From the NCBI GenBank assembly GCA_036479435.1, contig JAZGFI010000103.1, forward strand, positions 33,955 through 97,954: a stretch of DNA of 64,000 nt. Reading direction: 5' to 3'. The first letter of the stretch is position 1. Every line of letters begins with the position of its first letter. Both the position numbers and the translations under genes were made by a program. The stretch is from Planctomycetota bacterium (lineage in GTDB: Bacteria; Planctomycetota; GCA-002687715; DRQF01). This document shows positions 13,240 to 62,352 of this stretch, in pieces. Below the pieces are notes generated by a model. That model had not been told where the DNA came from, did not search any database, and was given only the letters and a program-made list of their open reading frames with translations.

Positions 13240-13259
13240 GGGCCCAGGATACTCGATCC

Positions 13260-13402: not shown

Positions 13403-13424
13403 AGACAGGAGAGGGGAGCTTCCG

Positions 13425-24541: not shown

Positions 24542-24546
24542 ACGTC

Positions 24547-29404: not shown

Positions 29405-30132
29405 GACGCTTCTTCGTTCTGTTTGGTCGCGAACTCAAGGCGACTTTCGATTCTTTCGGGTTCTTTTTGCTCCTAGCCATCGTGATGGGCATCACCGGCT
29501 TCACTTTCCAAAACCTCTTGCAGGGAACCGGGGGTGAAATGGACTTCGCTCTGCGAGGCCTGCAGTCCTGGTTGTTTTGGCTAACCATCGTCTTGACGCC
29601 GCTGTTGACGATGCGCCTGTTTGCGGAAGAAAAGCGCTCAGGGTCTTTTGAACTGTTGATGACCGCACCGGTGTCAGACGCCCAGGTCGTCTTGGCGAAG
29701 TATTTCTCGAGCGCATTGATCTTCGCCACTTTCATGCTGCCCTTGTGGGTGCTGCATGCCTTGCTTGCTCTTTTTTTTGACGCCGAACCGGATTGGGGCC
29801 AACTCTGCGCGACGAGTATCGGCCTGTTGGGGCTCGCTATTGTCTTCCTTGCGGTGGGGCTGTTCGCATCAGCGGTGAGCAGTCAGCAGCTATGGGCCGG
29901 CATCTTGGCCCTCATCGGCAACATGGTCTTGATGGCCTTGGGGACCCTGCAGAGTTTCTTTGACGCGGGTAGTACCTTCAGTCGATTCTTCCGGTACATC
30001 AATCTCAGCGAACACCTTGGCACCGCGCTCGGTGGGGTGATTGACTTTCGCCAAACGTTGGTACAAGTCTCGCTAACTTGCCTCATCTTGTTTTGGACCA
30101 TTCGCTCGGTGGAGGTCCGCAAATGGCGTTAA
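29401..30132 (+). CDS. ABC-2 type permease (GldF-like)
   Basis: Six TM segments. GTG start overlaps the ATPase stop (GTGA). Confidence 0.6.
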   Translation: MRRFFVLFGRELKATFDSFGFFLLLAIVMGITGFTFQNLLQGTGGEMDFALRGLQSWLFWLTIVLTPLLTMRLFAEEKRSGSFELLMTAPVSDAQVVLAKYFSSALIFATFMLPLWVLHALLALFFDAEPDWGQLCATSIGLLGLAIVFLAVGLFASAVSSQQLWAGILALIGNMVLMALGTLQSFFDAGSTFSRFFRYINLSEHLGTALGGVIDFRQTLVQVSLTCLILFWTIRSVEVRKWR

Positions 30133-31754: not shown

Positions 31755-33517
31755 AACAAAGCGGCCTCGTCGTAATGTTCTTGCTGCTAATGGCGGCATT
31801 TGCAGCGGTTTTCTACTTGCGCGGCCAAGAGGATGAAGCGCCCCCGGTCGACCCTTTGCGCAACGTCGATTTTAGCACCTTGAAGGCCGTGGTTTGTCGC
31901 GACGGCAAAGGCAGCGAATGGCGTCTGGAAATAGAGGCCGACAAGTACTTTCTGCGTTCGTCGCAGATCGCGGATGGCCTACGCGTCAGCGCCGATCAAG
32001 AACTCGCGCGACGTGTGATTTCATTGCTTAAAGAATCACGCCCGGTTCGCGACCTCGACCTCGAGTCCATCGACCCCAAAGCCTGGGGTTTGCAGCCTCC
32101 CTCACTGATCCTCGCCCTCGAGGACGGCAGCAAAGAGCACCTCATTCACGTTAGCCGCCCCGACTTGGACAACGGGGTCTTGTACTACCGGCCCGGTGAG
32201 AAAGACCTCTTTCGTGTCAACCGCCGAATTTTCGACGAGTTCCGCCGCGCGCCCTATGCCTTTCGAAATCCGCGGCTCTCATCTTTGTCTTACGCCGAGG
32301 TCCAAGGGCTTCAGATCAAGCGCCCCCATGAGTCCGTGTCGATGAGGAGATTGGGAGGGCGGTGGTTTCTCAGTCAAAAGGACCGGTTTGATCGCGCCAA
32401 TCCACTGAAGGTCGACCAGTTGGTCGCCTTTTTCGCCAATCAAAAAGGTGGCCCGCTGTCCAAAGAACGCCAGGCTCTCGACTGGCAAGAGCTAGCCGAA
32501 GTCTCGCTCAACGACGGCCTCGGCAAGATCGCACGCTACTTCGTCTACAAAACGTCCAGCAATGCCCGGATACTGGCGGCGCGGCGCGCCGACGAAACGG
32601 AATTGCGGCAGTTGCCCCTGACGGTCTTGAATCACATCACCATCACCGCAGAGCAGCTTCGCGACCCGTCGCTGATTGGCCTCGCCGAGAGCGAACTGGC
32701 CTCCATCATCATCGAAGGCCCCGGCCGTAAGCTCCCTTTGTTGCTGCGCCAAAGAGAGGGGAAGTATTGGTATGTGGGGCAAGGCCGCGTCGTGCCCCGC
32801 GTCGATCGCTCGCGATTCGAAGCCTTTCGCGACCGCGTCCTCAATCTTCGGATCGTCGAGCGCCTCGAAACGACTCCGGACTTCGATGCCTTCCTCACCA
32901 TTCGACTGAAATATGCCGGTGACCGCGATCGCCCCGACTTAGTCGTCAAACTGAGCCGCCCTCGAGACGATGGTCTGGTGTTGGCCCAACGTTCCGACGA
33001 GAAAAACGGGGTCTTAGTCGCTAAGAGCGAACTCGAGGCTCTCCAAACTCCCTACTGGAAACTCATGCAGCTCCATGTGTTTTCCGCCAGCGACGCCGCC
33101 ATCAACCATTTCACGATCGACGATCAAAAGGGTCGAGCCTTCAAACTCGAGCGCAGCGATGACGGCGTCGCCTGGCAGCGCAGCCAAGGCGAACCCCTTG
33201 GCGCAAGCCTCATGACGCCAGTCCTAAGCCGCCTCGCCTACCTCGGAGTTGCTGATTTCCTCGGCGTACTCCCCGCCGACCAAGTCAAAAAACTCTTCGC
33301 CAAGCCAAGCTGGAAAGTCAGCTGGCACTCACCCGAACAAAAAAACGAAAAGGGTATCCCCTACCGCCCTGAAACCAAAATCTGGGAAATAGGCGGCCTC
33401 GTCGACGACATCCACCACGCCTGCCGCATCAACCTTTTCCCCGGCCTCATCTTCAGCATCAAGGGCGAAGACCTCCTCTTTCTCAACGTCCTCTTCAACG
33501 CTCTCCGCGGCGCCTAA
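31751..33517 (+). CDS. DUF4340-type protein that habitually follows GldG-like genes
   Basis: ATG 31751 overlaps the upstream stop (ATGA). N-terminal TM anchor (LVVMFLLLMAAFAAVFYL), then a ~560-aa soluble region with no catalytic motifs. The gene order ATPase-permease-GldG-like-this gene matches the widespread 4-gene arrangement. Confidence 0.5.
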   Translation: MKQSGLVVMFLLLMAAFAAVFYLRGQEDEAPPVDPLRNVDFSTLKAVVCRDGKGSEWRLEIEADKYFLRSSQIADGLRVSADQELARRVISLLKESRPVRDLDLESIDPKAWGLQPPSLILALEDGSKEHLIHVSRPDLDNGVLYYRPGEKDLFRVNRRIFDEFRRAPYAFRNPRLSSLSYAEVQGLQIKRPHESVSMRRLGGRWFLSQKDRFDRANPLKVDQLVAFFANQKGGPLSKERQALDWQELAEVSLNDGLGKIARYFVYKTSSNARILAARRADETELRQLPLTVLNHITITAEQLRDPSLIGLAESELASIIIEGPGRKLPLLLRQREGKYWYVGQGRVVPRVDRSRFEAFRDRVLNLRIVERLETTPDFDAFLTIRLKYAGDRDRPDLVVKLSRPRDDGLVLAQRSDEKNGVLVAKSELEALQTPYWKLMQLHVFSASDAAINHFTIDDQKGRAFKLERSDDGVAWQRSQGEPLGASLMTPVLSRLAYLGVADFLGVLPADQVKKLFAKPSWKVSWHSPEQKNEKGIPYRPETKIWEIGGLVDDIHHACRINLFPGLIFSIKGEDLLFLNVLFNALRGA

Positions 33518-33614: not shown

Positions 33615-35075
33615 CTATAGTTCGGCTTCGAATTCGTCGTCTTGGCGGAGCTCGCTAGCCATGGCGGTGCGGTTGGCGCCGCGCTTTTTGGCGAGGTGGA
33701 GGGCTTCGTTGGCCCGACGGAAGAGGTCGTCGGAGTCGTGGGCGTCGACGGGGAAGGTGGCCGCGCCTACGGAGGCGGTGATTTGGCTGGCGATTTCGGG
33801 GACGGAGGAGCGGAAGTCGTAGGAGGCTAAGGTCGAACGGACGCGGTCGACGTAACTTTTTCGCTCACCGACAGCCGCGACGGAGGCGCCAGTTTCGGGG
33901 AGGAGGACGGCGAACTCGTCACCACCCCAGCGGGTCACGACGTCGACCTCGCGGAAGCAGCGGCGGATGAGGCGCGCCACTTCTCTGAGAATGGTGTCGC
34001 CAGTGACGTAGCCGTTGACGTCGTTGAAGGCTTTGAAGTTGTCGATGTCGATGAGAGCGAGAGTTAGCTGTCGGCCGTAACGGCGGGCGCGCGCGAGCTC
34101 TTGACGCAACTGCCGGTCGAAGTGACGGCGATTGTAGAGCTGAGTGAGCGGGTCGATGACCGTGAGCGCGTGGAGTTCTTCGATGTTTTTGGCGTTGCGG
34201 AGGGCGACGGCAAAGTGCCCCGCGAGGAGTCTTAGCGTTTCGGCATCATCGGGTGAAAAAGCGGCGCCATCGGCGCGGTCGGCGACATTAAAAACTCCGA
34301 GGCTTAGCTGGCGATCGCGGAGCGGGACCACGAGGCATGAATTGGTGGCGTAGCCGCGTGACGGTCGATCGGGGAACTCTCGAGCGATGTCTTTGACCAG
34401 GAGTGCTTGGCCGCTTTCGGCGACGGAGCCGGCAATGGGGGCTCCGAGTTGGACCACGACTTGGGTCGGTATGTCGTCGGGGAATCCGATTCTTCTGACC
34501 ATCTCCAGGGGCTTGCCAGCTCCCGACTGCAACATGAGGGAACCACGACGAGCGCGGGAGATCTCCATCACGACTTCAAGTCCTCGGGTGAGGAGCTTGT
34601 CGCGGTCGTGCTCAAGTTCAGAGAATTCGAGCATCGCTTGGATGACTTTGCTGAGGCGGCTTTCGCGGGGTGGCAACCGCTCTTCGTCACTGACGAGGGA
34701 GCTGGTCAGATCTGTGACGGACTCGCCATCAGGGTTGCCGAGAGCGTGCAACAACGCTCCATAACCAAAGGGTTCGGCCAGCCTTTCGTCGACACTCTCG
34801 ATGTCGTCGAGGATGGCTTCTTCGGATTCGCTGATGATGAGGCGGTAGGGCGCGGCGACGTCTCGAAGCTCTCGAAGATAGTCGGCCGAATTTGCGGGAA
34901 GCAGAGCGGCTCGGGCTAAGAACGCGCCCGGTGAGTACCGCGCTGAGAGCATCGCGGCTTCTAGGTAGCTATGGGTGGGAAGGACTTCCCAACCATCGCT
35001 GCGCAGCATCGCGACAAAGTGCTCGAGGTTCGGCTCGTCGTCGGTCAGGATGACCACCGATCTGCGTGCACTCAT
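33615..35075 (-). CDS. diguanylate cyclase with N-terminal receiver-like and GAF domains (REC-GAF-GGDEF)
   Basis: C-terminal GGDEF domain with an intact GGDEF motif (RWGGDEFAVLL) and an RYGRQLTLALIDIDNFKAFND segment. A central GAF-like region. An N-terminal CheY-like fold. Confidence 0.8.
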   Translation of the reverse strand: MSARRSVVILTDDEPNLEHFVAMLRSDGWEVLPTHSYLEAAMLSARYSPGAFLARAALLPANSADYLRELRDVAAPYRLIISESEEAILDDIESVDERLAEPFGYGALLHALGNPDGESVTDLTSSLVSDEERLPPRESRLSKVIQAMLEFSELEHDRDKLLTRGLEVVMEISRARRGSLMLQSGAGKPLEMVRRIGFPDDIPTQVVVQLGAPIAGSVAESGQALLVKDIAREFPDRPSRGYATNSCLVVPLRDRQLSLGVFNVADRADGAAFSPDDAETLRLLAGHFAVALRNAKNIEELHALTVIDPLTQLYNRRHFDRQLRQELARARRYGRQLTLALIDIDNFKAFNDVNGYVTGDTILREVARLIRRCFREVDVVTRWGGDEFAVLLPETGASVAAVGERKSYVDRVRSTLASYDFRSSVPEIASQITASVGAATFPVDAHDSDDLFRRANEALHLAKKRGANRTAMASELRQDDEFEAEL

Positions 35076-39683: not shown

Positions 39684-41033
39684 TTGAAAGTCCTCATCGC
39701 AGACGACGAGAAGAGCATCGTGATGACCCTCGAGGATGACCTCGAGGAGGCGGGTTACGAAGTTTTATCCTGCCCCGATGGTTTACGTGCGCTCGACCTG
39801 ATCAAGCGCGAGTCGGTGGACTGTCTCATCTCCGACCTCAACATGCCGGGCCTAAACGGCATGGACTTGCTCGCCGAAGCCAAAAAGATCTCGCCGAACC
39901 TTCAAGTGATTGTCATCACGGGGTACGCCACGATCGAAAGCGCGGTCAAGGCCATCAAGTTGGGCGCGGCGGACTACATCCAAAAGCCCTTTTTGAACGA
40001 ACAGATCCTCGCGATGCTCGCGAAGATGAAAAAGATCGTCCGTCTTGAACGCGAGAACGCCGTTTTACGAGAACAGCTGGACGACGTTCATGCGGTCGGC
40101 AATATCGTCGGCAAAAGCAAGGCGATGCAAGACGTCATCCGCACGGTGAAGACCGTCGCGAAAACGGACTCCAACATCTTGATTGTCGGTGAAACGGGCA
40201 CCGGAAAGGAAGTCATCGCCCGGGCGATTCACAACCTGAGCATGCGAAAAGGGAAGCTCATGGTCGCCCTGTCCTGTGCGGCTATTCCCTCAAACCTTTT
40301 GGAAGACGAGTTGTTCGGTCACGAAAAGGGTGCGTTTACCGATGCTCGTGACCGCAAAATCGGACGATTTGAACGCGCTGACGGGGGATCATTCTTCCTC
40401 GATGATATCGATGACATGCCGCTCGAGACTCAGGTCAAGCTGCTGAGGATTCTTCAGGAACGGGAATTTGAACGCCTTGGCGGCGAGGAGACGATCAAGG
40501 TTGATGTCCGGGTTGTCGCGGCGAGCAAGGTCGATCTTCGCGAGCTCGTAAGAGCGGGCAAGTTCCGCGAGGATTTGTTCTATCGCCTCAATGTCGTGCC
40601 GGTCTTGCTACCGCCGCTTCGAGATCGCGATGGCGATGTGCCCTTGTTGGCGTCTTATTTCATGAAGAAATTCTCGACCGAACGGGAATACGAGATCAAG
40701 CCCGAAGTGATGGCGGCGATGGAAGCCTATTATTGGCCGGGCAATGTCCGCGAACTCGAGCATGCGATTGAACGCGCCATCGCTTTTGCAGGAAGCGGAC
40801 ATGTGCTCAAAAAAGAGCACCTCGTCGAATCGTCTCCGGTCCACAAAAAGGCACTCGCCGTGCCGACCCACTTAACAACCTTGCGAGAGTTCGTCGAGGA
40901 AGCCGAGATGCAGCACATTCGCAACATCCTCAAGACGACCAACGGCCACAAGGCCCAGGCGGCAGGAGTTCTCGGCATCAGCCGCAAGAACTTGTGGGAA
41001 AAGATGCGGCACTATGACATCGAGCAGGACTAA
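39684..41033 (+). CDS. sigma-54-dependent response regulator (NtrC family) with a variant GAFTDA loop
   Basis: TTG start. REC with the phospho-acceptor Asp in LISDLNMPG. Walker A GETGTGKE. GAFTDA in place of the canonical GAFTGA. C-terminal HTH (AQAAGVLGISRKNLWEKM). Confidence 0.88.
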   Translation: MKVLIADDEKSIVMTLEDDLEEAGYEVLSCPDGLRALDLIKRESVDCLISDLNMPGLNGMDLLAEAKKISPNLQVIVITGYATIESAVKAIKLGAADYIQKPFLNEQILAMLAKMKKIVRLERENAVLREQLDDVHAVGNIVGKSKAMQDVIRTVKTVAKTDSNILIVGETGTGKEVIARAIHNLSMRKGKLMVALSCAAIPSNLLEDELFGHEKGAFTDARDRKIGRFERADGGSFFLDDIDDMPLETQVKLLRILQEREFERLGGEETIKVDVRVVAASKVDLRELVRAGKFREDLFYRLNVVPVLLPPLRDRDGDVPLLASYFMKKFSTEREYEIKPEVMAAMEAYYWPGNVRELEHAIERAIAFAGSGHVLKKEHLVESSPVHKKALAVPTHLTTLREFVEEAEMQHIRNILKTTNGHKAQAAGVLGISRKNLWEKMRHYDIEQD

Positions 41034-49006: not shown

Positions 49007-50317
49007 GTGTCCCAAAACGACCACCACACCACCGATCTCACCAAAGCTTTTGAAGTTGAGGAAAAAGCCCTCTACGGGCTCAGCCCCTTCGAAGCTGCTT
49101 CTTACTTCTTTGACCTTGCCGCGGCGCACCTGGGGCTTTCGGAATCTTCCGCGAGCATCCTGCGGACGCCGTATCGCGAGATCAACGTCCAGCTTCCCCT
49201 GCTGCGCGACGACGGCCGCACGATGCTCAACTTCGTGGGATACCGCGTGCACCACAATGGCGCTCGCGGGCCCTACAAGGGCGGCATCCGCTATCACCCC
49301 GATGCCAATGCCGACGAAGTTCGCGCTCTCGCGGCGCTGATGACCTGGAAAACGGCTTTGGTCGATATTCCCTTCGGCGGCGCCAAGGGCGGCATCGACT
49401 GCGATCCAAGTGACCTCTCGACGAGTGAGATGCGTCGTCTGACCCGAGACTTCACGCGCAAAATCCGCATGATTATCGGGCCTTACCGCGACATCCCGGC
49501 CCCTGACGTCGGCACCAACGCCCAAGTCATGGCTTGGATGATGGATGAGTACGGCCGCAGCGCCGGTCACTCCCCCGCCGTCGTCACCGGAAAACCGATC
49601 GAACTCGGCGGCTCCTTGGGTCGCAACGAGGCGACCGGGCGCGGCGTCGCCATCATCACCCGTCTGGCTTGCCGCGACGCGGGCGTCGAACTCAAAGACG
49701 CGCGCATCGTTATTCAGGGCTACGGAAACGTGGGGACTTTTGCCGCCTTTTTCCTCGATGAGATGGGCGCGAAGATTACCTGTGTATCGGACGTCAACGG
49801 CGGTATCTGCAACGATGATGGCATCGATCTTAAGGCCCTCAACCGGCACGTTGACAACAAGGGCACGGTCGTGGGCTACACCGGTTCGGAGCCAATCTCC
49901 AACACTGAGCTCTTGGCGCACCCTTGCGACATCCTCATTCCCGCTGCTCTCGGTGAGGTCATCCGCAAACGCAACTGTGACCAAGTCGACTGTAAAGTCG
50001 TCATCGAGGCTGCCAACCACCCCATCACCCCGTTCGCCGACAAGGCCCTCAACGATCGCGGCATCTTGGTCGTCCCGGACATCCTCGCGAATGCCGGCGG
50101 CGTCACCTGCTCCTACTTTGAATGGACTCAAAACATCCAGCAGTTCCGTTGGGATTTGGGCACCATCAATACCGAACTCGAAAAGACCTTGACTCGTGCC
50201 TACGAGGAAGTGAAATCCACCTCCGACCGCGAACAGATCAGTCAGCGCTTGGCCGCCTTCATCGTGGCTGTCGAACGCGTCAGCCGAGCCTCTCGCTTGC
50301 GCAGTTACGGCGAATAA
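49007..50317 (+). CDS. gdh: Glu/Leu/Phe/Val dehydrogenase (glutamate dehydrogenase)
   Basis: GTG start. Catalytic-lysine motif PFGGAKGGIDCDP. NAD(P) Rossmann GYGNVG. ~435 aa. Confidence 0.9.
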   Translation: MSQNDHHTTDLTKAFEVEEKALYGLSPFEAASYFFDLAAAHLGLSESSASILRTPYREINVQLPLLRDDGRTMLNFVGYRVHHNGARGPYKGGIRYHPDANADEVRALAALMTWKTALVDIPFGGAKGGIDCDPSDLSTSEMRRLTRDFTRKIRMIIGPYRDIPAPDVGTNAQVMAWMMDEYGRSAGHSPAVVTGKPIELGGSLGRNEATGRGVAIITRLACRDAGVELKDARIVIQGYGNVGTFAAFFLDEMGAKITCVSDVNGGICNDDGIDLKALNRHVDNKGTVVGYTGSEPISNTELLAHPCDILIPAALGEVIRKRNCDQVDCKVVIEAANHPITPFADKALNDRGILVVPDILANAGGVTCSYFEWTQNIQQFRWDLGTINTELEKTLTRAYEEVKSTSDREQISQRLAAFIVAVERVSRASRLRSYGE

Positions 50318-50692
50318 CCGCCCCTAAGGACCGAATAATTATTTCCCAGCTCAAGAACTAGACTAGGGGGCCGATCATCAAGGATCGGCCTCCAGTTCAT
50401 GCGCGAGCGTGGCTTGGCGAACGATGAGAAACCGGTCTCTTGTTCGGAGTTTTGAGCCTTGCCTATTTCCGGCGTCAACGCGGCTGAAAATCCTCTCAGC
50501 AATTTTCGAATTCGATCGAATACGATTTCATTACGCCGGCCCCCCGTTCCCAACCCGCGACGTGAGGCTTCACTTGAAAATGCCGCCTTGCGTTCGTTCT
50601 TGCGCCGGATCGACCGTCTTCGGGGTAACGTGGACGAGCTCGGAGATTCCGTAAAGCGACCCCGCCCTACTGACACGGGGGAAGGAGCTTCT

Positions 50693-52165
50693 GTGACCAG
50701 CGGAAGTAACGTCAACCTCGTATCTTTGACGACCCATGCCACGCTGACCTCAGATCGAGAGATCAACGATGTGCCGACTTCGTTCACCCCTTTCACCCCG
50801 GAGTTTTCCGCCCCTTTGAGCACGGCGACGGTCACGGTTGGCGGCGAGTACGGCGGACAGCAAGGCGATGACGTCCTGACGGTCGTCGCGACAGTTGCGG
50901 GTGATGTTGGCGTGGGGACCGGGCCCAAGTTCGGTGTTCTTGACGGGCTCGGCAATCAGGTCGACGTCTTCTCCTTGGGATCGAGCTATGTCCCGGGTGA
51001 GGCGATCACCCTTTCGAATGGATTGGAACTGAGTTTTGAAGCTGGCTTCGTCCAACAAGACGACAGTTTTGACATCGAGGTGTCCACCGCTGTACCCTCG
51101 GCGGTCGATTCGTCTGCAGCATTCAATGGTACCGGCGCCAACAACCCTAACTTTGAACCCGGGGTGACAGTGACGGCCGGGTCGATCGAGATCAACGGCA
51201 CCACGATCAACGTCGCGGCCAACGACTCAATCGACACCCTGCTGCAAAAGATCTCGACTTCAAACGCGAAGGTCAATGCCAGCTACAACGCGCAAACTGA
51301 ACGCATCGAGTTGATCAGCCAAATCGCTGGGTCGGCGGGCGATATCGTTCTGGGCACCGACACGACCGGGTTTTTTGCCGCAACAAAACTCGACACGGGG
51401 ATCTCCACCGCCGGGAACGACGGGTTTCAAGGCGACGTCGACAGTAGGATTGCAGACATCTCTAGCCTTAACGGTATTTCGAGCGGCACCTTTGAGGTCA
51501 ATGGCGTTACGCTCAACGTGGATGTCGACAACGACAGCCTGCAGGATGTCATCGATACCATTAATGCGAGCGGCGCTGGAGTGACGGCGAGTTACGACGC
51601 TGAGAATGCGGACATCTCCATCGTTTCGAACTCCGGCGGCAGTATCGTTCTCGGCGACGGCACCAGTGATCTTTTTAGCGTCTTGGATGTCTCTACTGGA
51701 GTCAGCATCTCGCCTCGAAGAAATGGCGGCAACGCTGGCAACCCTCAGGTGATCTCCGACGCTTTCGAGAATATTACCCGGGAGTTCAACCGATTGTTTT
51801 CTGACCTCGGCGGCGTCTCTCCCCTTCAGCGCAATCTCGCGAATATCGACTTCAAGGGGGCTATTCGCGGTGCCTTTCAGCAGGCTTTCGGCGAGTTTTT
51901 AGGCGGCGACGAACTCGACACCGGGATTGGCATCGTCTTTGACTTCAGCGATGACGCAGATGAGTTGCTGCGTTTTGACGAGAGTGAGTTTCGCTCCTCG
52001 TTGCGTTCGAAGTCCGTTCGTGCCTCGCAGTTTTTAGGCGATGAGAAAGTTACCGGTGGCCGCGGTGGGCTTGCCACGCGGTTTGCCGACGCCATCAAGA
52101 GAATCGAGGATCGGGTTCAAGATCGGCTTGGAATTCTGGGCGGCGTGCTCGACATCTTGGCCTAA
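50693..52165 (+). CDS. protein with two flagellin/hook-associated 'IN'-motif repeats (FliD-like middle region), orphan
   Basis: Two ~60-aa repeats, GSIEINGTTINVAANDSIDTLLQKISTSNAKVNASYNAQTERIELIS and GTFEVNGVTLNVDVDNDSLQDVIDTINASGAGVTASYDAENADISIVS, match the flagellin_IN pattern (F.INGxxIxV...Lxd.IN...AGV.ASyd). GTG 50693 lies 5 nt after AAGGAG. The upstream in-frame TTG at 50459 is an alternative start. Confidence 0.45.
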   Translation: MTSGSNVNLVSLTTHATLTSDREINDVPTSFTPFTPEFSAPLSTATVTVGGEYGGQQGDDVLTVVATVAGDVGVGTGPKFGVLDGLGNQVDVFSLGSSYVPGEAITLSNGLELSFEAGFVQQDDSFDIEVSTAVPSAVDSSAAFNGTGANNPNFEPGVTVTAGSIEINGTTINVAANDSIDTLLQKISTSNAKVNASYNAQTERIELISQIAGSAGDIVLGTDTTGFFAATKLDTGISTAGNDGFQGDVDSRIADISSLNGISSGTFEVNGVTLNVDVDNDSLQDVIDTINASGAGVTASYDAENADISIVSNSGGSIVLGDGTSDLFSVLDVSTGVSISPRRNGGNAGNPQVISDAFENITREFNRLFSDLGGVSPLQRNLANIDFKGAIRGAFQQAFGEFLGGDELDTGIGIVFDFSDDADELLRFDESEFRSSLRSKSVRASQFLGDEKVTGGRGGLATRFADAIKRIEDRVQDRLGILGGVLDILA

Positions 52166-52241
52166 ACCACCGAGATCACTTTTCAATAAACTAACCATAC
52201 GGTGTTAGTCGCAATTCTCCCAGCAAATCGCGCGATCGCCT

Positions 52242-53486
52242 TTATCGCCGTTGATCCAAATACTCCGCGAGCTTGTCGTACTGCCGGTGCAGGTCGTGCT
52301 CATCGACGCCGAGAGGGTTTTTGAAATAGCAGGCCAGCTGCGGCATGAGGCCAGCTTCGCCTCTGCCCTTGGCAAAGTCCGCAAGCCGGACCATGTCGAG
52401 AACCAAGGGTGCGGCGAGGATGGCGTCGCAGCCCTGCCAAGTGAACTGCAGGCTCATCTTGTAGTTCAAAAAACCAGAGAAATGGATGAAGTCCCAGGCC
52501 GTCTTGAGGTCGTTTAGGGATGGCACGTAGTCGATCGCAACATGGGTGTGTAAGGGGTAGCCGAGGATTTGCTCCAACAGCCCGTCCTTAGTCGAGATCT
52601 TGGCTTTTTTGTTGGCGTCGTCGGCAAGCACTTCGCCGTCGCGATCCCCAAGGATGTTGTAGCCCTGCCAGGTTTCAACTTTAAGGTTGCGGTGTTTAAA
52701 CATCGGCGCGAGCGCGCTCTTAACCAAAGTCTCGCCGGTCTTGCCATCGTTGCCCATGACGGGCACGCCCTTTTTCAGCGCCAATTTTAGATGCGCCGGG
52801 GTAAGACCAGCATTGCTCGGGGCAAAGTTGAGATAGGCGTATCCGGACTCAATCGCGGCCCAAGCGTAAAGGCTACTGGCGCGAAGCGCTTTGCGATCGT
52901 CTGCCGCAATCAAACGTTTGAGCCCCGCCGGCGTTGCGTGCCGTTTGTCGAGTTCCAAGGGAGGCTCGGTCGACGCGACGTTGACGACGATGACGTCGCG
53001 TAGCCCTTCGCGGGATTGAAAGTCCTTCAGGTCCGCTTTGATGGCCTTCAGCTGCTCGGCGAGAGTCAGTTGCTTGCTGTGAGTCTTGGCTTTGCGGCTC
53101 GCGATTTTCGAGATGGCATCGCCACAATTGACGACCGTGCCGAGCCGTAGATTGGCTTGGAAGACTTCGAGTTCGGAGCGGATCTCTTGCAGCGGTTCCA
53201 AGGGAATCGTGCTGGTTTCGCGGTAGATCTCGTAGGCGCTCTCATAAAGATCAACCGGGCGAACGTCGTGCCCGCCAAACACTAGGTCGTCGAGAGCCGC
53301 AAAGCCAAAGCCACTGAGCGCCTCAGTTTCCGTCATGATCCCGGTTGCGGGTACCAAGCCTTTGGCGACCAGCTGAGTACCAGCGATAACCGTTGTGGCC
53401 AGTCCCCCACCCATTCCGATGATCCAGACCCCGAGCTTGCCTCGAGCGGAAGGCTTTGTCTTCGACTTGCGTTTTTTGGCCGGCAT
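52242..53486 (-). CDS. ino1: myo-inositol-1-phosphate synthase (inositol-3-phosphate synthase)
   Basis: KLGVWIIGMGGGLATTVIAG Rossmann start. GNDGKTGETLVKSALAPMF, YNILGD and AWDFIHFSGFL blocks match archaeal/bacterial MIPS closely. Confidence 0.8.
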   Translation of the reverse strand: MPAKKRKSKTKPSARGKLGVWIIGMGGGLATTVIAGTQLVAKGLVPATGIMTETEALSGFGFAALDDLVFGGHDVRPVDLYESAYEIYRETSTIPLEPLQEIRSELEVFQANLRLGTVVNCGDAISKIASRKAKTHSKQLTLAEQLKAIKADLKDFQSREGLRDVIVVNVASTEPPLELDKRHATPAGLKRLIAADDRKALRASSLYAWAAIESGYAYLNFAPSNAGLTPAHLKLALKKGVPVMGNDGKTGETLVKSALAPMFKHRNLKVETWQGYNILGDRDGEVLADDANKKAKISTKDGLLEQILGYPLHTHVAIDYVPSLNDLKTAWDFIHFSGFLNYKMSLQFTWQGCDAILAAPLVLDMVRLADFAKGRGEAGLMPQLACYFKNPLGVDEHDLHRQYDKLAEYLDQRR

Positions 53487-53494
53487 TCTTGCCC

Positions 53495-55255
53495 CTACTC
53501 CTTTGTTGCCCCACGGTCTTCGCTAAGACGGCCATCATTTGCTGACAGCTCCGTCCAAGGATCTCCCGCGGCAAGGGGAAATCGTCGACCGCGCCCGAAG
53601 GCTTTCTTCGTGACCCGAAGACCGGGCGGCATTTGACGTCGTTTGTATTCGTTGTGGCGCACTAAACGAAGAACGTCTCTTACGCAGTTAGGTTCATGTC
53701 CGCGTGCGACGATCTCTGCTGGGCTAAGTCCGTCTTCGATAGCCGCCTCGAGGATGTCGTCAAGCACATCATAGGGCGGCAAGCTGTCGGTGTCGGCTTG
53801 TTCAGCGCGCAGCTCTGCGCTAGGTGGTCGCTCAATGCTGCGCCGGGGGATGGGCCCGCCCGAGGTTTCGTTCCAGCGCCGGGACAAAGCGAAAACACTG
53901 GTCTTCGACAAGTCCGCGATCGGAGCCAAGGCCCCACACATGTCGCCATACAAAGTGCAGTATCCGGTCGCCAACTCAGACTTGTTGCCGGTGGCTAACA
54001 GTAAGGCCTGAGTTTCGTTGGCGAGGGCCATCAAGAACAAGCCGCGGATGCGCGGTTGGATGTTCTCGTCGGTTAAAGGCGAAAGTTCGGCGCCAAGTAC
54101 GGACCGCATCGAGTCGCCAGTCGCCAGGTGAACGGCTTCGATCGGCATGATTTTGAAATCGATGCCCAGGTTGCGGGCGAGTTCGGCGGCGTCGTCTTCG
54201 CTCATGTCAGCGGAGAATCGGGAAGGCATCGCAACGCCGGTGACGTTTTTTGCTCCCAAGGCTTTGGTGGCCAAAACCGCGACAAGGGCGGAGTCGATCC
54301 CGCCCGATAGTCCCAGAATGACTCGCTCGAATCCCGTCTTGTGCACGTAGCCCCGGATGCCGCAAACCAAAGCGGCTGCGATTTCGTCTAGCTCCGCGGC
54401 GCCCTGAGTTTGATGGCTTTCTAAAGGCGACAATTCACCGTTCGCTTCGTCGTCGAAGTAGACGATGTCCGCGTTGAATCCGGCCGCACGAACGAGGACG
54501 CGCCCTTTAGCATCAACTGCCGTCGAGTGGCCGTCAAAGATCAGGTCGTCGTTTCCGCCGACCAAGTTACATAGAGCCAAGGGGCGATTGAATCGTTGAG
54601 CGAGGCGACGCAAGAGTCTCTCGCGATAGGCTGGTCGCCCTTTTGCGTAAGGAGATGCCGACAAGTTGCAAATGAAATCGGCGCCCGCGGTGACCAAACT
54701 CAGTGGCGGATCGCCTTCGTAGCGCGGGCGAGCGAGTCCGTGTTCTTGCTCGCCCCAAATGTCTTCGCAGATCGTCGCCCCGATGCTTTTGCCTTCGAAG
54801 GTCCACAAGGATGGCGGCGCTTCTGTTGAGAAATAGCGCGCCTCGTCAAAGACGTCGTACTCTGGCAGCCAAGACTTGGCGACCCGGCCGAGCAGGCGAC
54901 CGCGTTCGGCAAAAACGGCATCGTTGGAAAGTGCTTTGCCGGCGGCCGTGTTCGCTCGTCTGCTGGTGCTGCCGAAGATGATCCGTACGCCTTGGGGCAA
55001 CTCGGAGATGAGTTGTTGTTCCTCAGCGTGAATCAAGCGCAGAAAACCGGCGTCGCCGAGCCAGTCTCCCGGCGAGTAGCCGGGAAGGGCGAGCTCAGGA
55101 AAGATCAGCAGCCGCGCCCCCGCCCCGGCGGCCTCACTTGCGGCATCCCGCAAGAGGACCCGGTTTCGCGCGGGGTCGGCCTGCACGGAGTCGATTTGGC
55201 AAAGTGCCGTTTTCAAGCTGATCTTTCGGATACCAAGGGTCTGTGGTCGCACCAT
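53495..55255 (-). CDS. nadE: glutamine-dependent NAD+ synthetase (nitrilase domain + NAD synthase domain)
   Basis: N-terminal CN-hydrolase domain. C-terminal PP-loop GLSGGIDSALVAVLA. The start is uncertain: ATG 55255 fits the conserved N-terminus, and the frame is open up to 55360. Confidence 0.85.
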   Translation of the reverse strand: MVRPQTLGIRKISLKTALCQIDSVQADPARNRVLLRDAASEAAGAGARLLIFPELALPGYSPGDWLGDAGFLRLIHAEEQQLISELPQGVRIIFGSTSRRANTAAGKALSNDAVFAERGRLLGRVAKSWLPEYDVFDEARYFSTEAPPSLWTFEGKSIGATICEDIWGEQEHGLARPRYEGDPPLSLVTAGADFICNLSASPYAKGRPAYRERLLRRLAQRFNRPLALCNLVGGNDDLIFDGHSTAVDAKGRVLVRAAGFNADIVYFDDEANGELSPLESHQTQGAAELDEIAAALVCGIRGYVHKTGFERVILGLSGGIDSALVAVLATKALGAKNVTGVAMPSRFSADMSEDDAAELARNLGIDFKIMPIEAVHLATGDSMRSVLGAELSPLTDENIQPRIRGLFLMALANETQALLLATGNKSELATGYCTLYGDMCGALAPIADLSKTSVFALSRRWNETSGGPIPRRSIERPPSAELRAEQADTDSLPPYDVLDDILEAAIEDGLSPAEIVARGHEPNCVRDVLRLVRHNEYKRRQMPPGLRVTKKAFGRGRRFPLAAGDPWTELSANDGRLSEDRGATKE

Positions 55256-55658
55256 CGGGGTTGGAGCCACGAAGAAGCCCCCTGTTGTACGGCCTGGCTC
55301 GGCCGCGATAAAGGCCCTGAGCTTTCGGGGTTCGGGCCCGTGCGGGGATTTCCGGCCCACTCGCTTGCCCCCCTGTCGTTACCTGGAGGGAACGTGTTTC
55401 GGTTTCGTAACAGGTTTGAATCCATGATTGGGGCCTATCATCGAGTCCTCGGCCTTGGCATTAAAGGTTGATGTGCCTTAACCAACGCCATTTCAACAGG
55501 TTAGGATGATGTAATTCGAATTCAGTCATTTGGCCCTATCCATCATTCTGGCATCTCCTTTGCTTTAGTTAACCGGAAAGACGCTCGATCCCCGGCTGGT
55601 TTGCCATGCCGATCGCGACGTTTTGCCAAGCAGTCCATAGAGACACAGGAGACAGGCA

Positions 55659-57608
55659 ATGAAGAAACTAGTATACCTTTCCTCCTTCATGGGGACTTTT
55701 CTGCTAGTGGCGAGCCTCGCGTTCGCTCACGGCGGTAATTACACCGGACCTGGCGGTACGGGATCCGGCGGCGGATTCTCACCTTCAGGTGGTGGTACTC
55801 CCGGCCCGGGTCCTGGACCCGGCGGTGGTGGTACGACCGGTGGCGGTTCTAACGGCGGCGGCGCGACCGGCCCTGGCGGCGGTCTTCCCGGTGGTCCGAC
55901 CGGACCTGGCGGCGGTGGCGGCGGCGGAAATGCTGGCGGACCTGGCGGCGGACTCGGTGGTGGCGGCGGTTCGACGCCCGGCGCTCGCAAGGCCGCCAGT
56001 GACGCGAACGTCACTTGGGCCGCTTGGTGGTTCTTCAACGATGATCGCTTCTTGAACCTCAAGGCGAAAGTTCGCGCCGACGAAGCGCAAACCGAAAACG
56101 CCGACTTGTTCCTGGGTGAAGACACCTCCGATGCCGGTAGCAACCGAATGCCCGCGAAGAAAATTCGCGAAGGTGTGTTGCCGGTTCTGCGCCTCGCGTT
56201 GAAGGACTCCTTCTACGACACGCGCGCTGCGGCCGTGATTGCCCTCGGCAAATGTGGCATGGGCGATGACCTCGCTGAAATCAAGTCTGTCCTCAACGAC
56301 CGTGACAAACGTGTCCGCGAATCGGCAGCGTTGGCGATGGGGATCCTTGGCGACAAGGAAGCCATCCCGACCCTCATCGAGATCATGAACAACACCAAGT
56401 CTGCGCGGAAATTGCTTCGCAAGGGCGGTGAAATTCTTCCCCGTACTCGTTCGTTCGCGGCTATCGCCATTGGTTTGATCGGTCGTCGTACCGACATCTC
56501 CGATACCGAAGGAACGCGCGCCCTCATCAAGCTCATGAACGACAAGAGAGCCACCAAGGCGCAAGTCGACCTCGCGGTCGGACCGATCGCCGCTCTCGGA
56601 ATCATGAAGTCGAAGGAAGCCATTCCCGAGCTCGTCAAGTACTTGAAGAACTCCAACAACCGCACCGTGGCCCGCTCGTTTGCAGCGACCTCGCTCGGCA
56701 AGATTGGTGATCGTTCGGCTCTTGAGCCGCTGTTGAAGTGCTTGAAGGACAAGCAGAACGCGATCGTTCAGTCCTCGACCATGGCTTTGGGTCAAATCCT
56801 TGAGCCCTCTGACACCAAAGAAGTGAAGCGCGTGAAGAAGCTCGTCTCGACGAGTGCTGACCTTTCGGTCAAGAACTTCGCGATCATGTCACTCGCTCAA
56901 ATCGGTGGCGACGAAAACCGTCAGTTCATCACGAGACTCGTGACCAAGGGTAAGGCTTTGCAAAAGCCCTTCGCTTCGCTCGCGGTCGGCGTGTTCTACT
57001 ACAACAACCCCGATTTCCTTCACCGGGAATCTGCGGCCAAGATCATCCACAAGGAGTTCAAGAGCACCAAGAACCCCTCGGATCTCGGCGCGCATGCGAT
57101 CGCTTTGGGTCTCATGAAGTACGACGCCGCTGGCGCCGACATTCTGAAGATCCTCAACAAGGGTGGCCAGGCTTCGCTTCGTCAGCACCTTGCGATCTCA
57201 CTCGGCCTCATGGACTACCGCGATTCCATCAAGGACATCCGGGAGATCGTGAAGGAAAAGGGTGATGTTGACTTGCGACGGAACTCCGCCATTGCTCTCG
57301 GTCTCCTCGGCGACCGTGGTGCCATGAAGTTCCTCAGCGAAGAAATCGCGAAGTCCTCGAACACGCAGCCGGTTCTCGGCGCCGTGACTCGTGGCCTCGG
57401 ATTCATCGGTGATGCGAGTGCGGTTCCGTTGTTGACGAAGATGGTCAAGGATTCGAAGAAGTTCAAGGACAACACGCGCGCCTTCTCGGCCGTGGCCTTG
57501 GGCTTGCTGGGCGACAAAGATCCCCTGCCCTTCACCGCCTCCATCTCTGAGAACAACAACTACATCCAGCGGACCGATGCGATCCGCGAAGTCCTGACGA
57601 TTCTCTAA
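55659..57608 (+). CDS. secreted HEAT-repeat (PBS-lyase-type) protein with Gly/Pro-rich N-terminal region, paralogue 1
   Basis: Signal peptide MKKLVYLSSFMGTFLLVASLAFA with the predicted cleavage site directly before HGGNY. An ~85-aa Gly/Pro tract, a conserved WAAWWFFNDDRFLNLKAK block, then >12 repeats of DxxVRxxAAxALGxxGD. Confidence 0.7.
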   Translation: MKKLVYLSSFMGTFLLVASLAFAHGGNYTGPGGTGSGGGFSPSGGGTPGPGPGPGGGGTTGGGSNGGGATGPGGGLPGGPTGPGGGGGGGNAGGPGGGLGGGGGSTPGARKAASDANVTWAAWWFFNDDRFLNLKAKVRADEAQTENADLFLGEDTSDAGSNRMPAKKIREGVLPVLRLALKDSFYDTRAAAVIALGKCGMGDDLAEIKSVLNDRDKRVRESAALAMGILGDKEAIPTLIEIMNNTKSARKLLRKGGEILPRTRSFAAIAIGLIGRRTDISDTEGTRALIKLMNDKRATKAQVDLAVGPIAALGIMKSKEAIPELVKYLKNSNNRTVARSFAATSLGKIGDRSALEPLLKCLKDKQNAIVQSSTMALGQILEPSDTKEVKRVKKLVSTSADLSVKNFAIMSLAQIGGDENRQFITRLVTKGKALQKPFASLAVGVFYYNNPDFLHRESAAKIIHKEFKSTKNPSDLGAHAIALGLMKYDAAGADILKILNKGGQASLRQHLAISLGLMDYRDSIKDIREIVKEKGDVDLRRNSAIALGLLGDRGAMKFLSEEIAKSSNTQPVLGAVTRGLGFIGDASAVPLLTKMVKDSKKFKDNTRAFSAVALGLLGDKDPLPFTASISENNNYIQRTDAIREVLTIL

Positions 57609-58148: not shown

Positions 58149-60083
58149 ATGAAACATCTCATCTATCTAACTTCGTTCTTGGGAGCCTTGCTCCTAGCCA
58201 CCAGCCTGGTCTTTGCGCACGGCGGGAATTACACCGGTCCCGGCGGCACCGGCAGCAGCGGTGGCTTTTCACCATCGGGCGGCGGTACGCCCGGACCTGG
58301 GCCGGCTCCGGGAGGAGGCTCCACTCCTGGCGGCGGAGGAAACGGTGGTGGAGCCACTCCCCGCGGCAGCGGGTTGCCTGGAGGCCCCCCGGGTCCTGGA
58401 GGCGGCCTACCCGGTGGCGGGGGCTTTGGCGGTGGCCCTGGAAACGCCACGGGCGGCGGCAAGAAAAAGCCCTCTGACTCCAACACCACCTGGGCCGCTT
58501 GGTGGTTCTTCAACGACGATCGTTTCTTGAACCTCAAGGCCAAGATCCGGGCCGAGCGCGCCACGACCGATATCGACGATGCCTTCATGGGATCGGACAC
58601 GTCTGATTTGGGTCACAACAAACTCTCCGCTCGCAAGATTCGCGACGGTGTTCTTCCCGTGCTGCGCTTAGCGCTCAAAGACGGCCACTACGATACTCGT
58701 GCAGCCGCCGTCATCGCCTTAGGTAAGGCCGGAATGCCCGACGATCTGGCGGAGATTAAGACGCTCCTCGGCGACCGCGACAAGCGCGTGCGCGAGTCAT
58801 CGGCCTTGGCACTCGGCATCTTGGGCAACAAAAAAGCCCTACCCGAACTCATCGCCATCATGAACAACACAGCGTGGGCCCGAAAAGAACTGCGTCAAGG
58901 AGGCGAAGTTCTGCCGCGCACGCGCGCCTTCGCCGCCATGGCCTTGGGACTGATCGGTGGTCGTACGGACATTTCTGACACCGCCGCTTTCACCGCCCTC
59001 GTTCAACTCATGAACGACAAGCACACCACAAAGGCCCAGATCGATCTCACTGTGGGGCCCATCGTTGCGCTCGGGATCATGAACGACAAAGCCGCCGTAC
59101 CTGAGCTCGTACGCTACCTTGAAAATCGTGAAAACCGCACCACCGCCCGCGCCTACGCTGCCATTTCGCTCGGGAAACTCGGCGACCGTTCCGCGACGGC
59201 TTCCTTGCTCCGCGCTCTCAAGGCCAAGCACGGCGCCATCGTCGAATCCGCCGCGATCGCTTTGGGACAGATCCTTGAACCTAGCGACAAAAAGGCGGTC
59301 AAGCGCCTGCGTCGACTGGTTGCAAGCTCTCCCATTCAGTCGGTGCGCAACTTCGCCATCATGTCCTTGGGTCAAATCGGCGGTGAAGAGAACCGTCAAT
59401 TCCTCACCACTACCGTCACTCGCGGCAAAGCCCTCCAACGTCCTTTCGCCTCGATGGCACTCGGCGTCTTTTACTACAACCACCCGCACTACGATCATCG
59501 CAAGGCAACCGGCATTCTGCTTCATGGCGAATTCAAAGCCACCAAGAACCCCTCTGAACTCGGCGCACATGCGATTGCCCTGGGGCTGATGCAGTTTGAC
59601 ACCGCTGGTGCCGACATTCTGAAGACCCTAAACAAGGGCGGCCAGGCCTCGATGCGCCAACACCTAGCGATCTCTTTGGGGCTCATGAGCTACCAAGACG
59701 CCATCCCGGACATCCGTACCCTCGTGGAGGAAAAGGGCGATGTTGACTTGCGACGCAATGCTGCGATCGCCCTCGGTCTGCTCGGCGACCGCGGTGCGAT
59801 GAGTTTCCTAAGTGAGCAAATCGCCGACTCTGCGAATTCGCAGGCGGTCCTCGGGGCCGTGACGCGAGGCCTCGGCTTCATCGGCGATGCCAGTGCTGTC
59901 CCGCTTCTGACTGAAATGGTTCGCGACGCCAAAAAGTACAAGGACAACACACGCGCCTTTTCGGCCGTTGCCTTGGGGCTCTTGGGCGACAAAGACCCGC
60001 TGCCTTTCACGACAGCCATCGCCGAGAACAACAACTACATCCAGCGCACGGACGCCATCCGCGAGCTCCTCACTATCCTTTAA
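58149..60083 (+). CDS. secreted HEAT-repeat (PBS-lyase-type) protein with Gly/Pro-rich N-terminal region, paralogue 2
   Basis: Collinear with paralogue 1 over the whole length (same signal peptide, HGGNYTGPGGTG start, WAAWWFFNDDRFLNLKAK block, identical C-terminal IQRTDAIRExLTIL). ~85 bp of upstream DNA is also conserved. Confidence 0.7.
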   Translation: MKHLIYLTSFLGALLLATSLVFAHGGNYTGPGGTGSSGGFSPSGGGTPGPGPAPGGGSTPGGGGNGGGATPRGSGLPGGPPGPGGGLPGGGGFGGGPGNATGGGKKKPSDSNTTWAAWWFFNDDRFLNLKAKIRAERATTDIDDAFMGSDTSDLGHNKLSARKIRDGVLPVLRLALKDGHYDTRAAAVIALGKAGMPDDLAEIKTLLGDRDKRVRESSALALGILGNKKALPELIAIMNNTAWARKELRQGGEVLPRTRAFAAMALGLIGGRTDISDTAAFTALVQLMNDKHTTKAQIDLTVGPIVALGIMNDKAAVPELVRYLENRENRTTARAYAAISLGKLGDRSATASLLRALKAKHGAIVESAAIALGQILEPSDKKAVKRLRRLVASSPIQSVRNFAIMSLGQIGGEENRQFLTTTVTRGKALQRPFASMALGVFYYNHPHYDHRKATGILLHGEFKATKNPSELGAHAIALGLMQFDTAGADILKTLNKGGQASMRQHLAISLGLMSYQDAIPDIRTLVEEKGDVDLRRNAAIALGLLGDRGAMSFLSEQIADSANSQAVLGAVTRGLGFIGDASAVPLLTEMVRDAKKYKDNTRAFSAVALGLLGDKDPLPFTTAIAENNNYIQRTDAIRELLTIL

Positions 60084-60702: not shown

Positions 60703-62352
60703 CTAGTCTCCTTTGAGCCAGCGGTCGGTGAGGGACTCGACGGGCGCGTGGTGGTCGCGAAGGATCGGAGCTTCGGAAGATGGGCTAAAGTCGCTGCTAA
60801 AACGCGCGGCGTAGCGACCCGTGCTTTGGAGGTTTTTTGGAAACACCTTGGCGGAAGGCCAGGCGACCGGGCCATGGGGTCGCGCCCACATCATCGTGTT
60901 GCCCCACCATTGCACCGGCGTCACGCGCAAATGCTCGTAGCCGCCGTCCTGCAGGCTGCGTCCGATGCTCTGAATCAGGCCTTGGCCGAGATCCGTACCA
61001 CTGACGTTGAGGGCGAGAATGCCACCGGGAGCCAGACGCTTTTTTGTCAGCTTAAAGAACTCGGTCGTGACGAGGTGGAAAGGGATGTCGATCTGGCGGG
61101 CGTAGGCGTCGACGATGATCAAGTCGTAGAGTTGAGTGCTCGCCGCCAAAAAAGCCCGGCCATCCAAGGCTAGGCTGCGGTCGTGGGGCCCCTTTTCGTA
61201 GCCGAAACGCTCCTCAAGTCCGATGACAGCGGGATCAATCTCAACGTTGATGATGGAGGCGACGTGCTCGTCCCAAAGGGTACGAAAAAGGCGGGCCATG
61301 GTTCCGGCTCCGCTTCCCAAGACCGCGATGCGGATCGCCTTGTCGGCGGCAAAAAGTCCGGGCAAGAGCGCGAAGGTGTCGTAGTACTTGCCGCCGGTGG
61401 TGTCGGCGTCTTTGAGTAGGAGCGAGTGAAACTCGTTAACGCCTTCATCAATACGAAGCAGCAATTCCGTCTCGCCAGCGAGAGCTGGTTCAACCGGTTC
61501 GGCCTCGACGAGACGTAGATACTGATAGGCCGTTTCGTACTCGATGAGTTTCGACTCGCCACCTAGGGCCGGTCGCAGCGGCCGCCCATTCAAGCCCAAG
61601 CCAGATAACAACAGCAAGATGCCCAAAGCTGCGGCGGTCTTTCCTTGGGTCTTGCCTCGAAGCAACAAGAACGCGGCCGGCAGGCCTAAGAACGCACCAG
61701 CGATCAACAGTGAGGCTCGGGAGCCGACCGTCGGAATAAGGAAATAGGTCGGCAGAAAGGTCCCCAGAAGGCTGCCGAAAGTGCCAACGCCGAAGACCAA
61801 GCCAGAGGCGCGTCCGGCATCGATATTCGGCATCGCGGCGAGCCGGGCCACGATCTGCGGCGTAACCGAGGCTAAAAGGAATGCCGGTGGTGCGAAAAGA
61901 AAAAGTGAGACAACCAAAGAGCCCATTTGAAGGCCGCGGCGAAGCGCGGTCGCGTCGACCGATGCCTCGGGTGCCGGCAATAGCCAGGTACTAAGCAAGG
62001 GGACGAGCCAGGGGATGAGGGCGGCGCAGCCCGCCGCCCCGATGAGGTGAAAGGCAACCCGGCGCGGAGCCCGCGGGCGATGGGCGAGCTTGCCGCCAAA
62101 CTGATAACCGAGAGCTAAGGCGAACAGAATAACGCCGATGACGTTCGTCCAGACAAAGCTGGAGCTGCCGAAATAGGGCTGCATGATGCGAGGTGCGGTG
62201 AGCTCAAAGAGCATGGTTCCCGCGCCCGCCGCGAAGGCAACAAACAGCCAGCTCGTCAGCGACGGGCTGGCTTGAGAATCGCTTGACGTTGGTTCGCTCA
62301 CGACGGCTGAGGATCGCAAGAGCCTAGCTCTTTTCCTCTTCCTTTTTCTCAT
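60703..62352 (-). CDS. fused polytopic membrane domain + spermidine-synthase-like (class I SAM MTase fold) protein
   Basis: N-terminal ~220 aa with ~7 TM helices. C-terminal region with IAVLGSGAGTMARLF (GxGxG), YDLIIVDAY and GGILALNV typical of spermine/spermidine synthase family proteins. Confidence 0.6.
   Translation of the reverse strand: MRKRKRKRARLLRSSAVVSEPTSSDSQASPSLTSWLFVAFAAGAGTMLFELTAPRIMQPYFGSSSFVWTNVIGVILFALALGYQFGGKLAHRPRAPRRVAFHLIGAAGCAALIPWLVPLLSTWLLPAPEASVDATALRRGLQMGSLVVSLFLFAPPAFLLASVTPQIVARLAAMPNIDAGRASGLVFGVGTFGSLLGTFLPTYFLIPTVGSRASLLIAGAFLGLPAAFLLLRGKTQGKTAAALGILLLLSGLGLNGRPLRPALGGESKLIEYETAYQYLRLVEAEPVEPALAGETELLLRIDEGVNEFHSLLLKDADTTGGKYYDTFALLPGLFAADKAIRIAVLGSGAGTMARLFRTLWDEHVASIINVEIDPAVIGLEERFGYEKGPHDRSLALDGRAFLAASTQLYDLIIVDAYARQIDIPFHLVTTEFFKLTKKRLAPGGILALNVSGTDLGQGLIQSIGRSLQDGGYEHLRVTPVQWWGNTMMWARPHGPVAWPSAKVFPKNLQSTGRYAARFSSDFSPSSEAPILRDHHAPVESLTDRWLKGD

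Follow-up and report, generated by a model that had tools for sequence, protein, structure and literature searches.

A FliD-related protein encoded apart from flagellar genes in a Planctomycetota bacterium, with a candidate sigma-28 promoter that recurs in its family

The 64-kb stretch of Planctomycetota DNA analysed here (the window) carries, between gdh and the gene for myo-inositol-1-phosphate synthase, a gene whose product contains flagellin-IN motifs and belongs to a widespread FliD-related family. The + strand frame of this target gene is open from 50456, its first start codon is the TTG at 50459, and its stop codon ends at 52165. The open reading frame (ORF) is real, and NCBI has the identical 490-amino acid (aa) product of a GTG start at 50693, from a Planctomycetota metagenome-assembled genome (MAG), under the name 'hypothetical protein V3W41_06845 [Planctomycetota bacterium]'. 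The initial annotation, a reading of the DNA letters alone, had named both neighbours as we found them. It had also reported that flagellar genes were missing nearby, and in agreement a Pfam scan of all 44 large ORFs in the window gave no flagellar or chemotaxis domain. The gene is therefore not part of a fliD-fliS/flaG operon. PADLOC gave no defence system match. The genes concerned are:

49007-50317, + strand: gdh (glutamate dehydrogenase), the 5' neighbour of the target gene
50459-52165, + strand: the target gene, revised coding sequence (CDS) with, most probably, a TTG start; FliD-related IN-motif family protein of 568 aa
52242-53486, - strand: myo-inositol-1-phosphate synthase, the 3' neighbour of the target gene
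53495-55360, - strand: NAD synthetase, beyond the myo-inositol-1-phosphate synthase gene

The initial annotation, like the NCBI deposit, started the gene at GTG 50693, and placed before it a 360-nucleotide (nt) untranslated leader (50330-50692) containing only weak ORFs. Neither claim held, because the 78 codons upstream of the GTG align with the N-termini of homologues and favour TTG 50459. The supposed leader is thus mostly coding, and the intergenic region between gdh and the target gene is 50321-50458. In homologues of 545-640 aa a conserved 'STEEVN..PTSF' motif is preceded by about 90-120 residues, and it is there that the 78-codon extension aligns. Residues 30-63 of the 568-aa model are 41% identical to residues 30-63 of homologue P0009 (E=5e-5). 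A family hidden Markov model (HMM) built without the window sequence scored the 568-aa model at 517.3 bits versus 484.0 bits for the 490-aa model and recognised the 78-aa N-terminal piece alone (E=1.8e-5). Typical members of the family have 545-580 aa and are matched by the profile from end to end, and the target N-terminus, '(M)PISGVNA', agrees with the family-wide N-terminal motif M-x-I-[ST]-G-[IV]. Given the alignment of the extension, the HMM scores and the lengths of other members, the CDS is most probably 50459-52165. The deposited 490-aa gene model is probably truncated by 78 residues at its N-terminus, and the leader would be about 75-140 nt rather than 360 nt in length. The strong Shine-Dalgarno-like sequence and GTG (50678-50695) lie inside the ORF within an unconserved linker, and translation probably starts mainly elsewhere; this GTG may have been misannotated or may serve as a second, internal start that yields a 490-aa isoform. 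The two start regions are:

50446-50449, + strand: Shine-Dalgarno sequence GGAG, 9 nt before TTG 50459 (sequence inspection)
50693-50695, + strand: in-frame GTG preceded by GGAAGGAG, the start in the NCBI annotation and in the initial annotation

The protein contains two internal repeats, residues 238-319 and 340-420 of the 568-aa model, which share 39% identity over 80 aa (E=8e-16). The initial annotation had described two flagellin-IN repeats of about 60 aa. Both repeats are genuine, since each isolated segment exceeds the gathering score of Pfam Flagellin_IN (PF07196, 22.7 bits), although the unit is about 80 aa, the length over which the two align. A Pfam scan of the full-length target protein returned nothing at E<=1, which we attribute to HMMER filtering because 13 of 14 family members match PF07196. 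An AlphaFold (AF2) model of the target protein (mean pLDDT, the predicted local distance difference test score, of 74) consists of a disordered segment (1-32), a helix (33-65), a confident beta domain (78-209), two alpha/beta IN domains and a helical region (429-557). No Sec-type signal peptide is evident in residues 1-32. The domains map to the DNA as follows:

50459-50554, + strand: predicted-disordered N-terminus, residues 1-32, with motif M-x-I-[ST]-G-[IV] (pLDDT about 30; N-termini conserved across loci)
50555-50653, + strand: N-terminal helix, residues 33-65, with a nearly invariant R55, inside the former 'leader'
50690-51103, + strand: family-specific beta-sandwich, immunoglobulin (Ig)-like domain, residues 78-215 (AF2 pLDDT about 90)
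51170-51415, + strand: flagellin-IN repeat 1 (PF07196, 27.6 bits)
51476-51718, + strand: flagellin-IN repeat 2 (PF07196, 29.6 bits)
51743-52129, + strand: C-terminal helical region, residues 429-557, resembling FliD D1 helices and without the D0 coiled coil (model and profiles)

The filament cap protein FliD is the closest relative of the family. When the family profile was compared with true FliD by hhalign, the two aligned with 99.9% probability (E=1.2e-37) over family columns 209-527, a span comprising the IN domains and the first C-terminal helices and stopping at the 'npe.V..lF' motif. The C-terminal region taken by itself gave E=2.5e-5. A sequence search of PDB found no relative of the target protein. 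In a Foldseek search of PDB with the model, the top six matches were all FliD (E=1.6e-7 to 3.2e-6), and the target protein has the D2-D3 head-domain fold of FliD. The FliD_C family matches the C-terminal region at E=0.014 (15.3 bits, cutoff 25.4) over model positions 125-180 of 236 only, and the protein ends about 40 residues past the matched part. FliD_C (PF07195) is therefore incomplete and the D0 coiled coil is missing. FliD_N (PF02465) gave no match in the target protein at E<=1 or in the 14 members at E<=0.1, and the family N-terminus compared with FliD by hhalign was non-significant (E=0.08, probability 0.7%). The beta domain (78-215) had no hhalign match in FliD; weak Big_15 matches to it were seen in 4 of the 14 members. 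Flagellin_N (PF00669), Flagellin_C (PF00700) and Flg_bb_rod matched neither the target protein nor the 14 members, in line with the initial annotation, which had found the termini unlike the conserved terminal helices of FliD, flagellin and FlgK/L. FlgK and FlgL were likewise set aside: the protein lacks the Flg_bb_rod N-terminus and Flg_bbr_C C-terminus, and the FlgL equivalog PRK06663, with a cutoff of 337 bits, matched only residues 242-287, at 28.6 bits. The family thus derives from FliD without being a bona fide FliD: both FliD_N and the C-terminal coiled coil are missing, and an additional beta domain is present in the N-terminal part.

Textbook sigma-28 promoters have the consensus TAAAGTTT-N11-GCCGATAA. 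The initial annotation had proposed a search for a flagellar promoter in the supposed leader, and a sigma-28-type site, TCAAGAAC-N11-GCCGATCA, is indeed present in the sense orientation at 50351-50377, 82 nt upstream of TTG 50459. By sequence it is of the sigma-28 (FliA) late-regulon type. The elements are:

50351-50358, + strand: sigma-28-type -35 element, TCAAGAAC, part of the unique window match (family consensus T[A/C]AAGTTC)
50366-50393, + strand: GC-rich 11-bp hairpin (GGGGGCCGAUC/GAUCGGCCUCC) without a U-tract, just after the gdh stop codon (RNA fold)
50370-50377, + strand: sigma-28-type -10 element, GCCGATCA, after an 11-nt spacer and matching 7 of 8 positions of the textbook element

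The composite pattern T[AC]AAG-N14/15-GCCGAT has a single match in the two strands of the 64-kb window taken together, where 0.13 is expected by chance, and the chance of a match within the 140-nt intergenic sense strand is about 1.4e-4. Such sites recur across phyla. Of 57 family loci, 25 have a strict sigma-28 motif upstream in the sense orientation, at a density of 0.55 per kb versus 0.005 per kb in 2.0 Mb of flanking DNA, an enrichment of about 110-fold. Twelve of these 25 loci fall outside the Desulfobacterales clade, among them loci of Gammaproteobacteria, Vicinamibacterales, Acidobacteriota, Acidimicrobiia, Myxococcota and Nitrospirales. The positions left free by the search pattern also agree with TAAAGTTC and the textbook -10 element, with spacers of 11-12 nt, and the -10 element GGCCGATCA recurs upstream of the Planctomycetota homologues L011 and L031. 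The sigma-28-like background sites in the flanks precede genes for an ion channel, a DegT aminotransferase and an unknown protein, and with such downstream genes they neither validate nor contradict the motif.

The alternative flagellar promoter, sigma-54, was not found: within 50250-50700 the best match to TGGCAC-N5-TTGCA had four mismatches and the only site keeping the invariant GG/GC had six. Scans of 50200-52400 for sigma-70 promoters and intrinsic terminators gave nothing. Three related loci encoding 800-aa two-module members (L002, at about 9880-9910, L010 and L018) are without a sigma-28 -10 element and share a different conserved upstream block, GGCAAGTCTTGCGCAGCCCGT[G/A]CACA, which may be a variant promoter.

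A second regulatory element, a riboswitch of the cyclic di-GMP-I (c-di-GMP-I) clan, precedes the family gene in several relatives. Matches above the Rfam gathering scores were found at eight Desulfobacterales loci (RF01051, RF03167, the GGC variant, and RF03168, the UAU variant) and, with RF01051 at 42-59 bits, at three Nitrospirales loci. The aptamers, each in the coordinates of its own locus, are:

Desulfobacterales: L013, 9829-9907
Desulfobacterales: L015, 6724-6803
Desulfobacterales: L016, 9823-9901
Desulfobacterales: L019, 5794-5872
Desulfobacterales: L023, 7032-7110
Desulfobacterales: L024, 1126-1204
Desulfobacterales: L027, 9830-9908
Desulfobacterales: L029, 9020-9098
Nitrospirales: L014, 9539-9628
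Nitrospirales: L025, 5632-5721
Nitrospirales: L037, 9669-9757

All 11 aptamers lie upstream of the start of the family gene, and in 10 of the 11 a sigma-28-type site is found just upstream. L014 has only a weaker GCAAG variant of the -35 element, and L025 no recognisable -35 element at the usual spacing. The Desulfobacterales and related loci have a highly conserved leader, with the promoter 180-265 nt before the ATG; downstream of the aptamer, those of Desulfobacterales also have a terminator-like hairpin and a T6 run. A sequence pattern located the element in six further loci; 19 others, eight of them from Planctomycetota, have none. When the window leader was searched for structured RNA with Rfam at E<=1, only spurious mir-128 and suhB matches were obtained.

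The family is large. A profile search of 1.84 billion representative sequences gave 3140 proteins at E<=1e-3 and 615 clusters at E<=1e-30, and 59 family loci were collected from GTDB species representatives. The hosts belong to more than eight phyla and include Planctomycetota, Myxococcota, Desulfobacterales, Nitrospirales, Gammaproteobacteria (Arenicellales and Granulosicoccus), Krumholzibacteriota, Fibrobacteraceae, Acidobacteriota, Verrucomicrobiota, Lentisphaerae and Acidimicrobiia. Granulosicoccus, the only cultured genus in the sample that has a full-length family member, is flagellated (PMC9238374). Canonical IN-bearing FliD proteins form a separate and much weaker-scoring group (P0036-P0049). 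At the other extreme are members of 1100-2024 aa (P0050-P0064 and the 2024-aa product of L050 8525-14599) in which an [Ig-like + IN] module is repeated, giving up to 10 matched stretches; these multi-module members resemble giant surface proteins. The protein is not covered by any curated family model: its only NCBIfam matches were FlgL and FliD equivalogs scoring below threshold, and Pfam has no family for the beta domain or the C-terminus. Full-text literature searches on the family, on FliD-like proteins or FliD paralogues and on PF07196 found nothing relevant.

Clustering all 852 locus ORFs against one another detected no neighbour conserved across phyla, synteny being seen within clades only. 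Among the immediate neighbours (137 ORFs from 45 loci) no Pfam family occurred more than three times, and the 25 most frequent of their 116 Pfam families included no flagellar family. The other family loci have unrelated housekeeping genes as neighbours, with no flagellar family in the contexts examined. As neither conserved nor flagellar neighbours were found at these loci, the orphan placement is a property of the whole family. A FliB_C neighbour was considered as a family feature and rejected because no loci other than L002 and the closely related L010 have it. In these two related, Myxococcota-like loci a convergent gene (12409-13800 and 12391-13707, respectively, both on the - strand) encodes a protein with a CxxCxxCC domain and the FliB_C domain, the C-terminal domain of flagellin lysine-N-methylase. 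Large proteins with a spermine/spermidine synthase domain are encoded directly upstream of the family gene in L002 (6856-9753) and within about 9 kb of it in the window (60703-62352), a proximity that is probably coincidence.

Elsewhere in the window, 23678-25932 encodes a histidine kinase and sigma-54-activator response regulator pair, 39684-41033 a second sigma-54-dependent response regulator and 33615-35075 a GAF-GGDEF diguanylate cyclase. None of these two-component or GGDEF genes could be tied to the target gene, which has no sigma-54 site upstream. An ATP-binding cassette (ABC) ATPase, an ABC-2 permease, an ABC_transp_aux (GldG-like) protein and a DUF4340 protein are encoded in a row at 28460-33517 and resemble a gliding-associated ABC transporter. 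Two adjacent paralogous HEAT/PBS-lyase repeat proteins of about 645 aa are encoded at 55659-57608 and 58149-60083, the first with a long Gly/Pro-rich low-complexity N-terminal region.

These findings make it probable, in our judgement, that the target is a FliA-controlled, FliD-derived flagellar accessory protein, likely exported and encoded as a single-gene unit of a widespread uncharacterised family. The initial annotation had offered two alternatives, a divergent cap or junction protein whose gene lies apart from the flagellar regulon and an IN repeat recruited into a non-flagellar secreted or structural protein, and the findings favour a version of the former. The kinship with FliD was borne out. 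The protein is not a bona fide FliD, however, and the gene, though unlinked from flagellar genes, appears to be inside their regulon given the sigma-28 promoter at 50351-50377 and its recurrence across phyla. Transcription would occur with the late flagellar genes from about position 50385 to give a 5' untranslated region of about 73 nt. The product would then be exported through the flagellar type III apparatus, because its N-terminus is disordered, it has no signal peptide and its topology is that of an axial protein, and it would act outside the cell, on or near the flagellum. As the D0 legs are missing, the protein would not plug the filament in the manner of the canonical cap and would more likely be a tip- or filament-associated accessory or adhesin-like protein. 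More tentatively, and with less confidence than we place in the target gene assignment, the family as a whole could be an unrecognised extracellular flagellar component found across phyla: a D0-less, FliD-derived 'cap-like' late substrate that would coat or work together with the filament tip, or act as a flagellum-borne adhesin, with its production controlled by FliA and, in certain phyla, by c-di-GMP riboswitches acting directly.

Several observations weigh against assigning the target gene and its family to the flagellum, and some of these favour other explanations. The hosts include Myxococcota and Vicinamibacterales, which are classically regarded as non-flagellated, and our survey of flagellar genes in the source MAG covers 64 kb of a 224,672-bp contig. 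No c-di-GMP-I match was found in window positions 50250-50750 (Rfam, E<=1). The pTM (predicted template modelling score) of the AF2 model is only 0.39, the GC content at third codon positions is 0.53 in the N-terminal extension versus 0.68 in the core, and export and the extracellular location are steps that we only infer. For the promoter itself the main ground for caution is that its -10 element overlaps the 11-bp GC hairpin directly after gdh, which is probably (and possibly nothing other than) the gdh terminator. Its -35 element is a weak, partial match to the consensus (TCAAGAAC versus TAAAGTTT), and the strict motif is absent from 32 of the 57 loci, including most of those from Planctomycetota. 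Together with the lack of any flagellar gene within 64 kb, these points would fit a chance match within a terminator hairpin, in which case the gene would be expressed outside any flagellar programme, perhaps even in an organism that has no flagella, and its product could be cytoplasmic or otherwise have nothing to do with motility. We consider this improbable given that the composite motif is unique in the window, in the correct place and orientation, that the family-wide enrichment is so strong and that GGCCGATCA also precedes the genes of two further Planctomycetota homologues, where no such hairpin is present.

A highly divergent but functional FliD orthologue, that is, a true filament cap, would account for FliD being the best match by both sequence profile and fold and for the late-gene promoter. 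It would have to cap filaments without an FliD_N domain, without the approximately 70-aa C-terminal coiled coil and the FliD D2 segment, with only the short sub-threshold portion of FliD_C and with no adjacent fliS or flaG, and the canonical IN-bearing FliDs fall in a separate group; we regard it as very improbable, the least favoured of the readings weighed here. A more serious contender, though still unlikely, is a non-flagellar secreted or surface protein that has borrowed FliD-type IN domains and is co-expressed with motility via sigma-28 and c-di-GMP, as are the flagellar co-expressed or flagellum-secreted proteins of Campylobacter, with no structural role in the flagellum. The lack of any linkage to flagellar genes, the absence of the D0 and FliD_N elements needed for axial assembly, the extra Ig-like domain and the highly variable, adhesin-like module number all suit such a protein. 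The homology to FliD, however, reaches past the IN repeats into D1-type helices, and the layout of N-terminal helix, inserted domains and C-terminal helices is that of a flagellar axial protein. Moreover, its regulation and export would be those of the flagellar accessory protein that we favour, from which it differs only in the final site of action.

The list of flagellar parts is generally taken to be all but complete, yet the present family, which comprises hundreds of clusters at 50% identity, has no annotation beyond 'hypothetical' or 'IN motif-containing'. Two independent regulatory signatures, sigma-28 promoters and c-di-GMP riboswitches, tie it to the motility programme. Were its members flagellar accessory or tip proteins, they would extend what is known of the reuse of FliD-type modules and provide a concrete target of c-di-GMP control in environmental bacteria.

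Among known systems the nearest is the FliD/HAP2 cap (PF02465 plus PF07195; PDB 5h5v, 6sih and 9gnz). The family shares with it the IN-motif alpha/beta domains and D2/D3 head fold, partial D1 helices carrying the motif GI.FD ... npe.V..lF ... GL..rl, the order of N-terminal helix, inserted domains and C-terminal helices, and a late-gene (sigma-28) promoter. It differs in having neither FliD_N nor the D0 coiled coil, the family protein ending about 30 aa past the GL motif, in lacking the FliD D2 strand segment, in its added N-terminal Ig-like beta domain and the multiplied modules of some members, and in that its gene never adjoins fliS, fliT or flaG. The likeness to FlgK, FlgL and IN-bearing flagellins is confined to the IN motif itself (the FlgL match is 46 residues long), the terminal domains Flg_bb_rod, Flg_bbr_C and Flagellin_N/C being absent. 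With motility genes controlled by c-di-GMP-I (GEMM-I) riboswitches (RF01051, RF03167 and RF03168) the Desulfobacterales and Nitrospirales homologues have the leader aptamer in common, whereas the window gene has no riboswitch. Finally, the FspA and Fed proteins of Campylobacter are sigma-28-dependent, flagellum-secreted, non-structural proteins that are small and lineage-specific. Like the family studied here, they are unlinked from flagellar clusters, have sigma-28 promoters and lack Sec signals, but the present family is FliD-derived and spans many phyla, and no sequence relationship between the two is expected.

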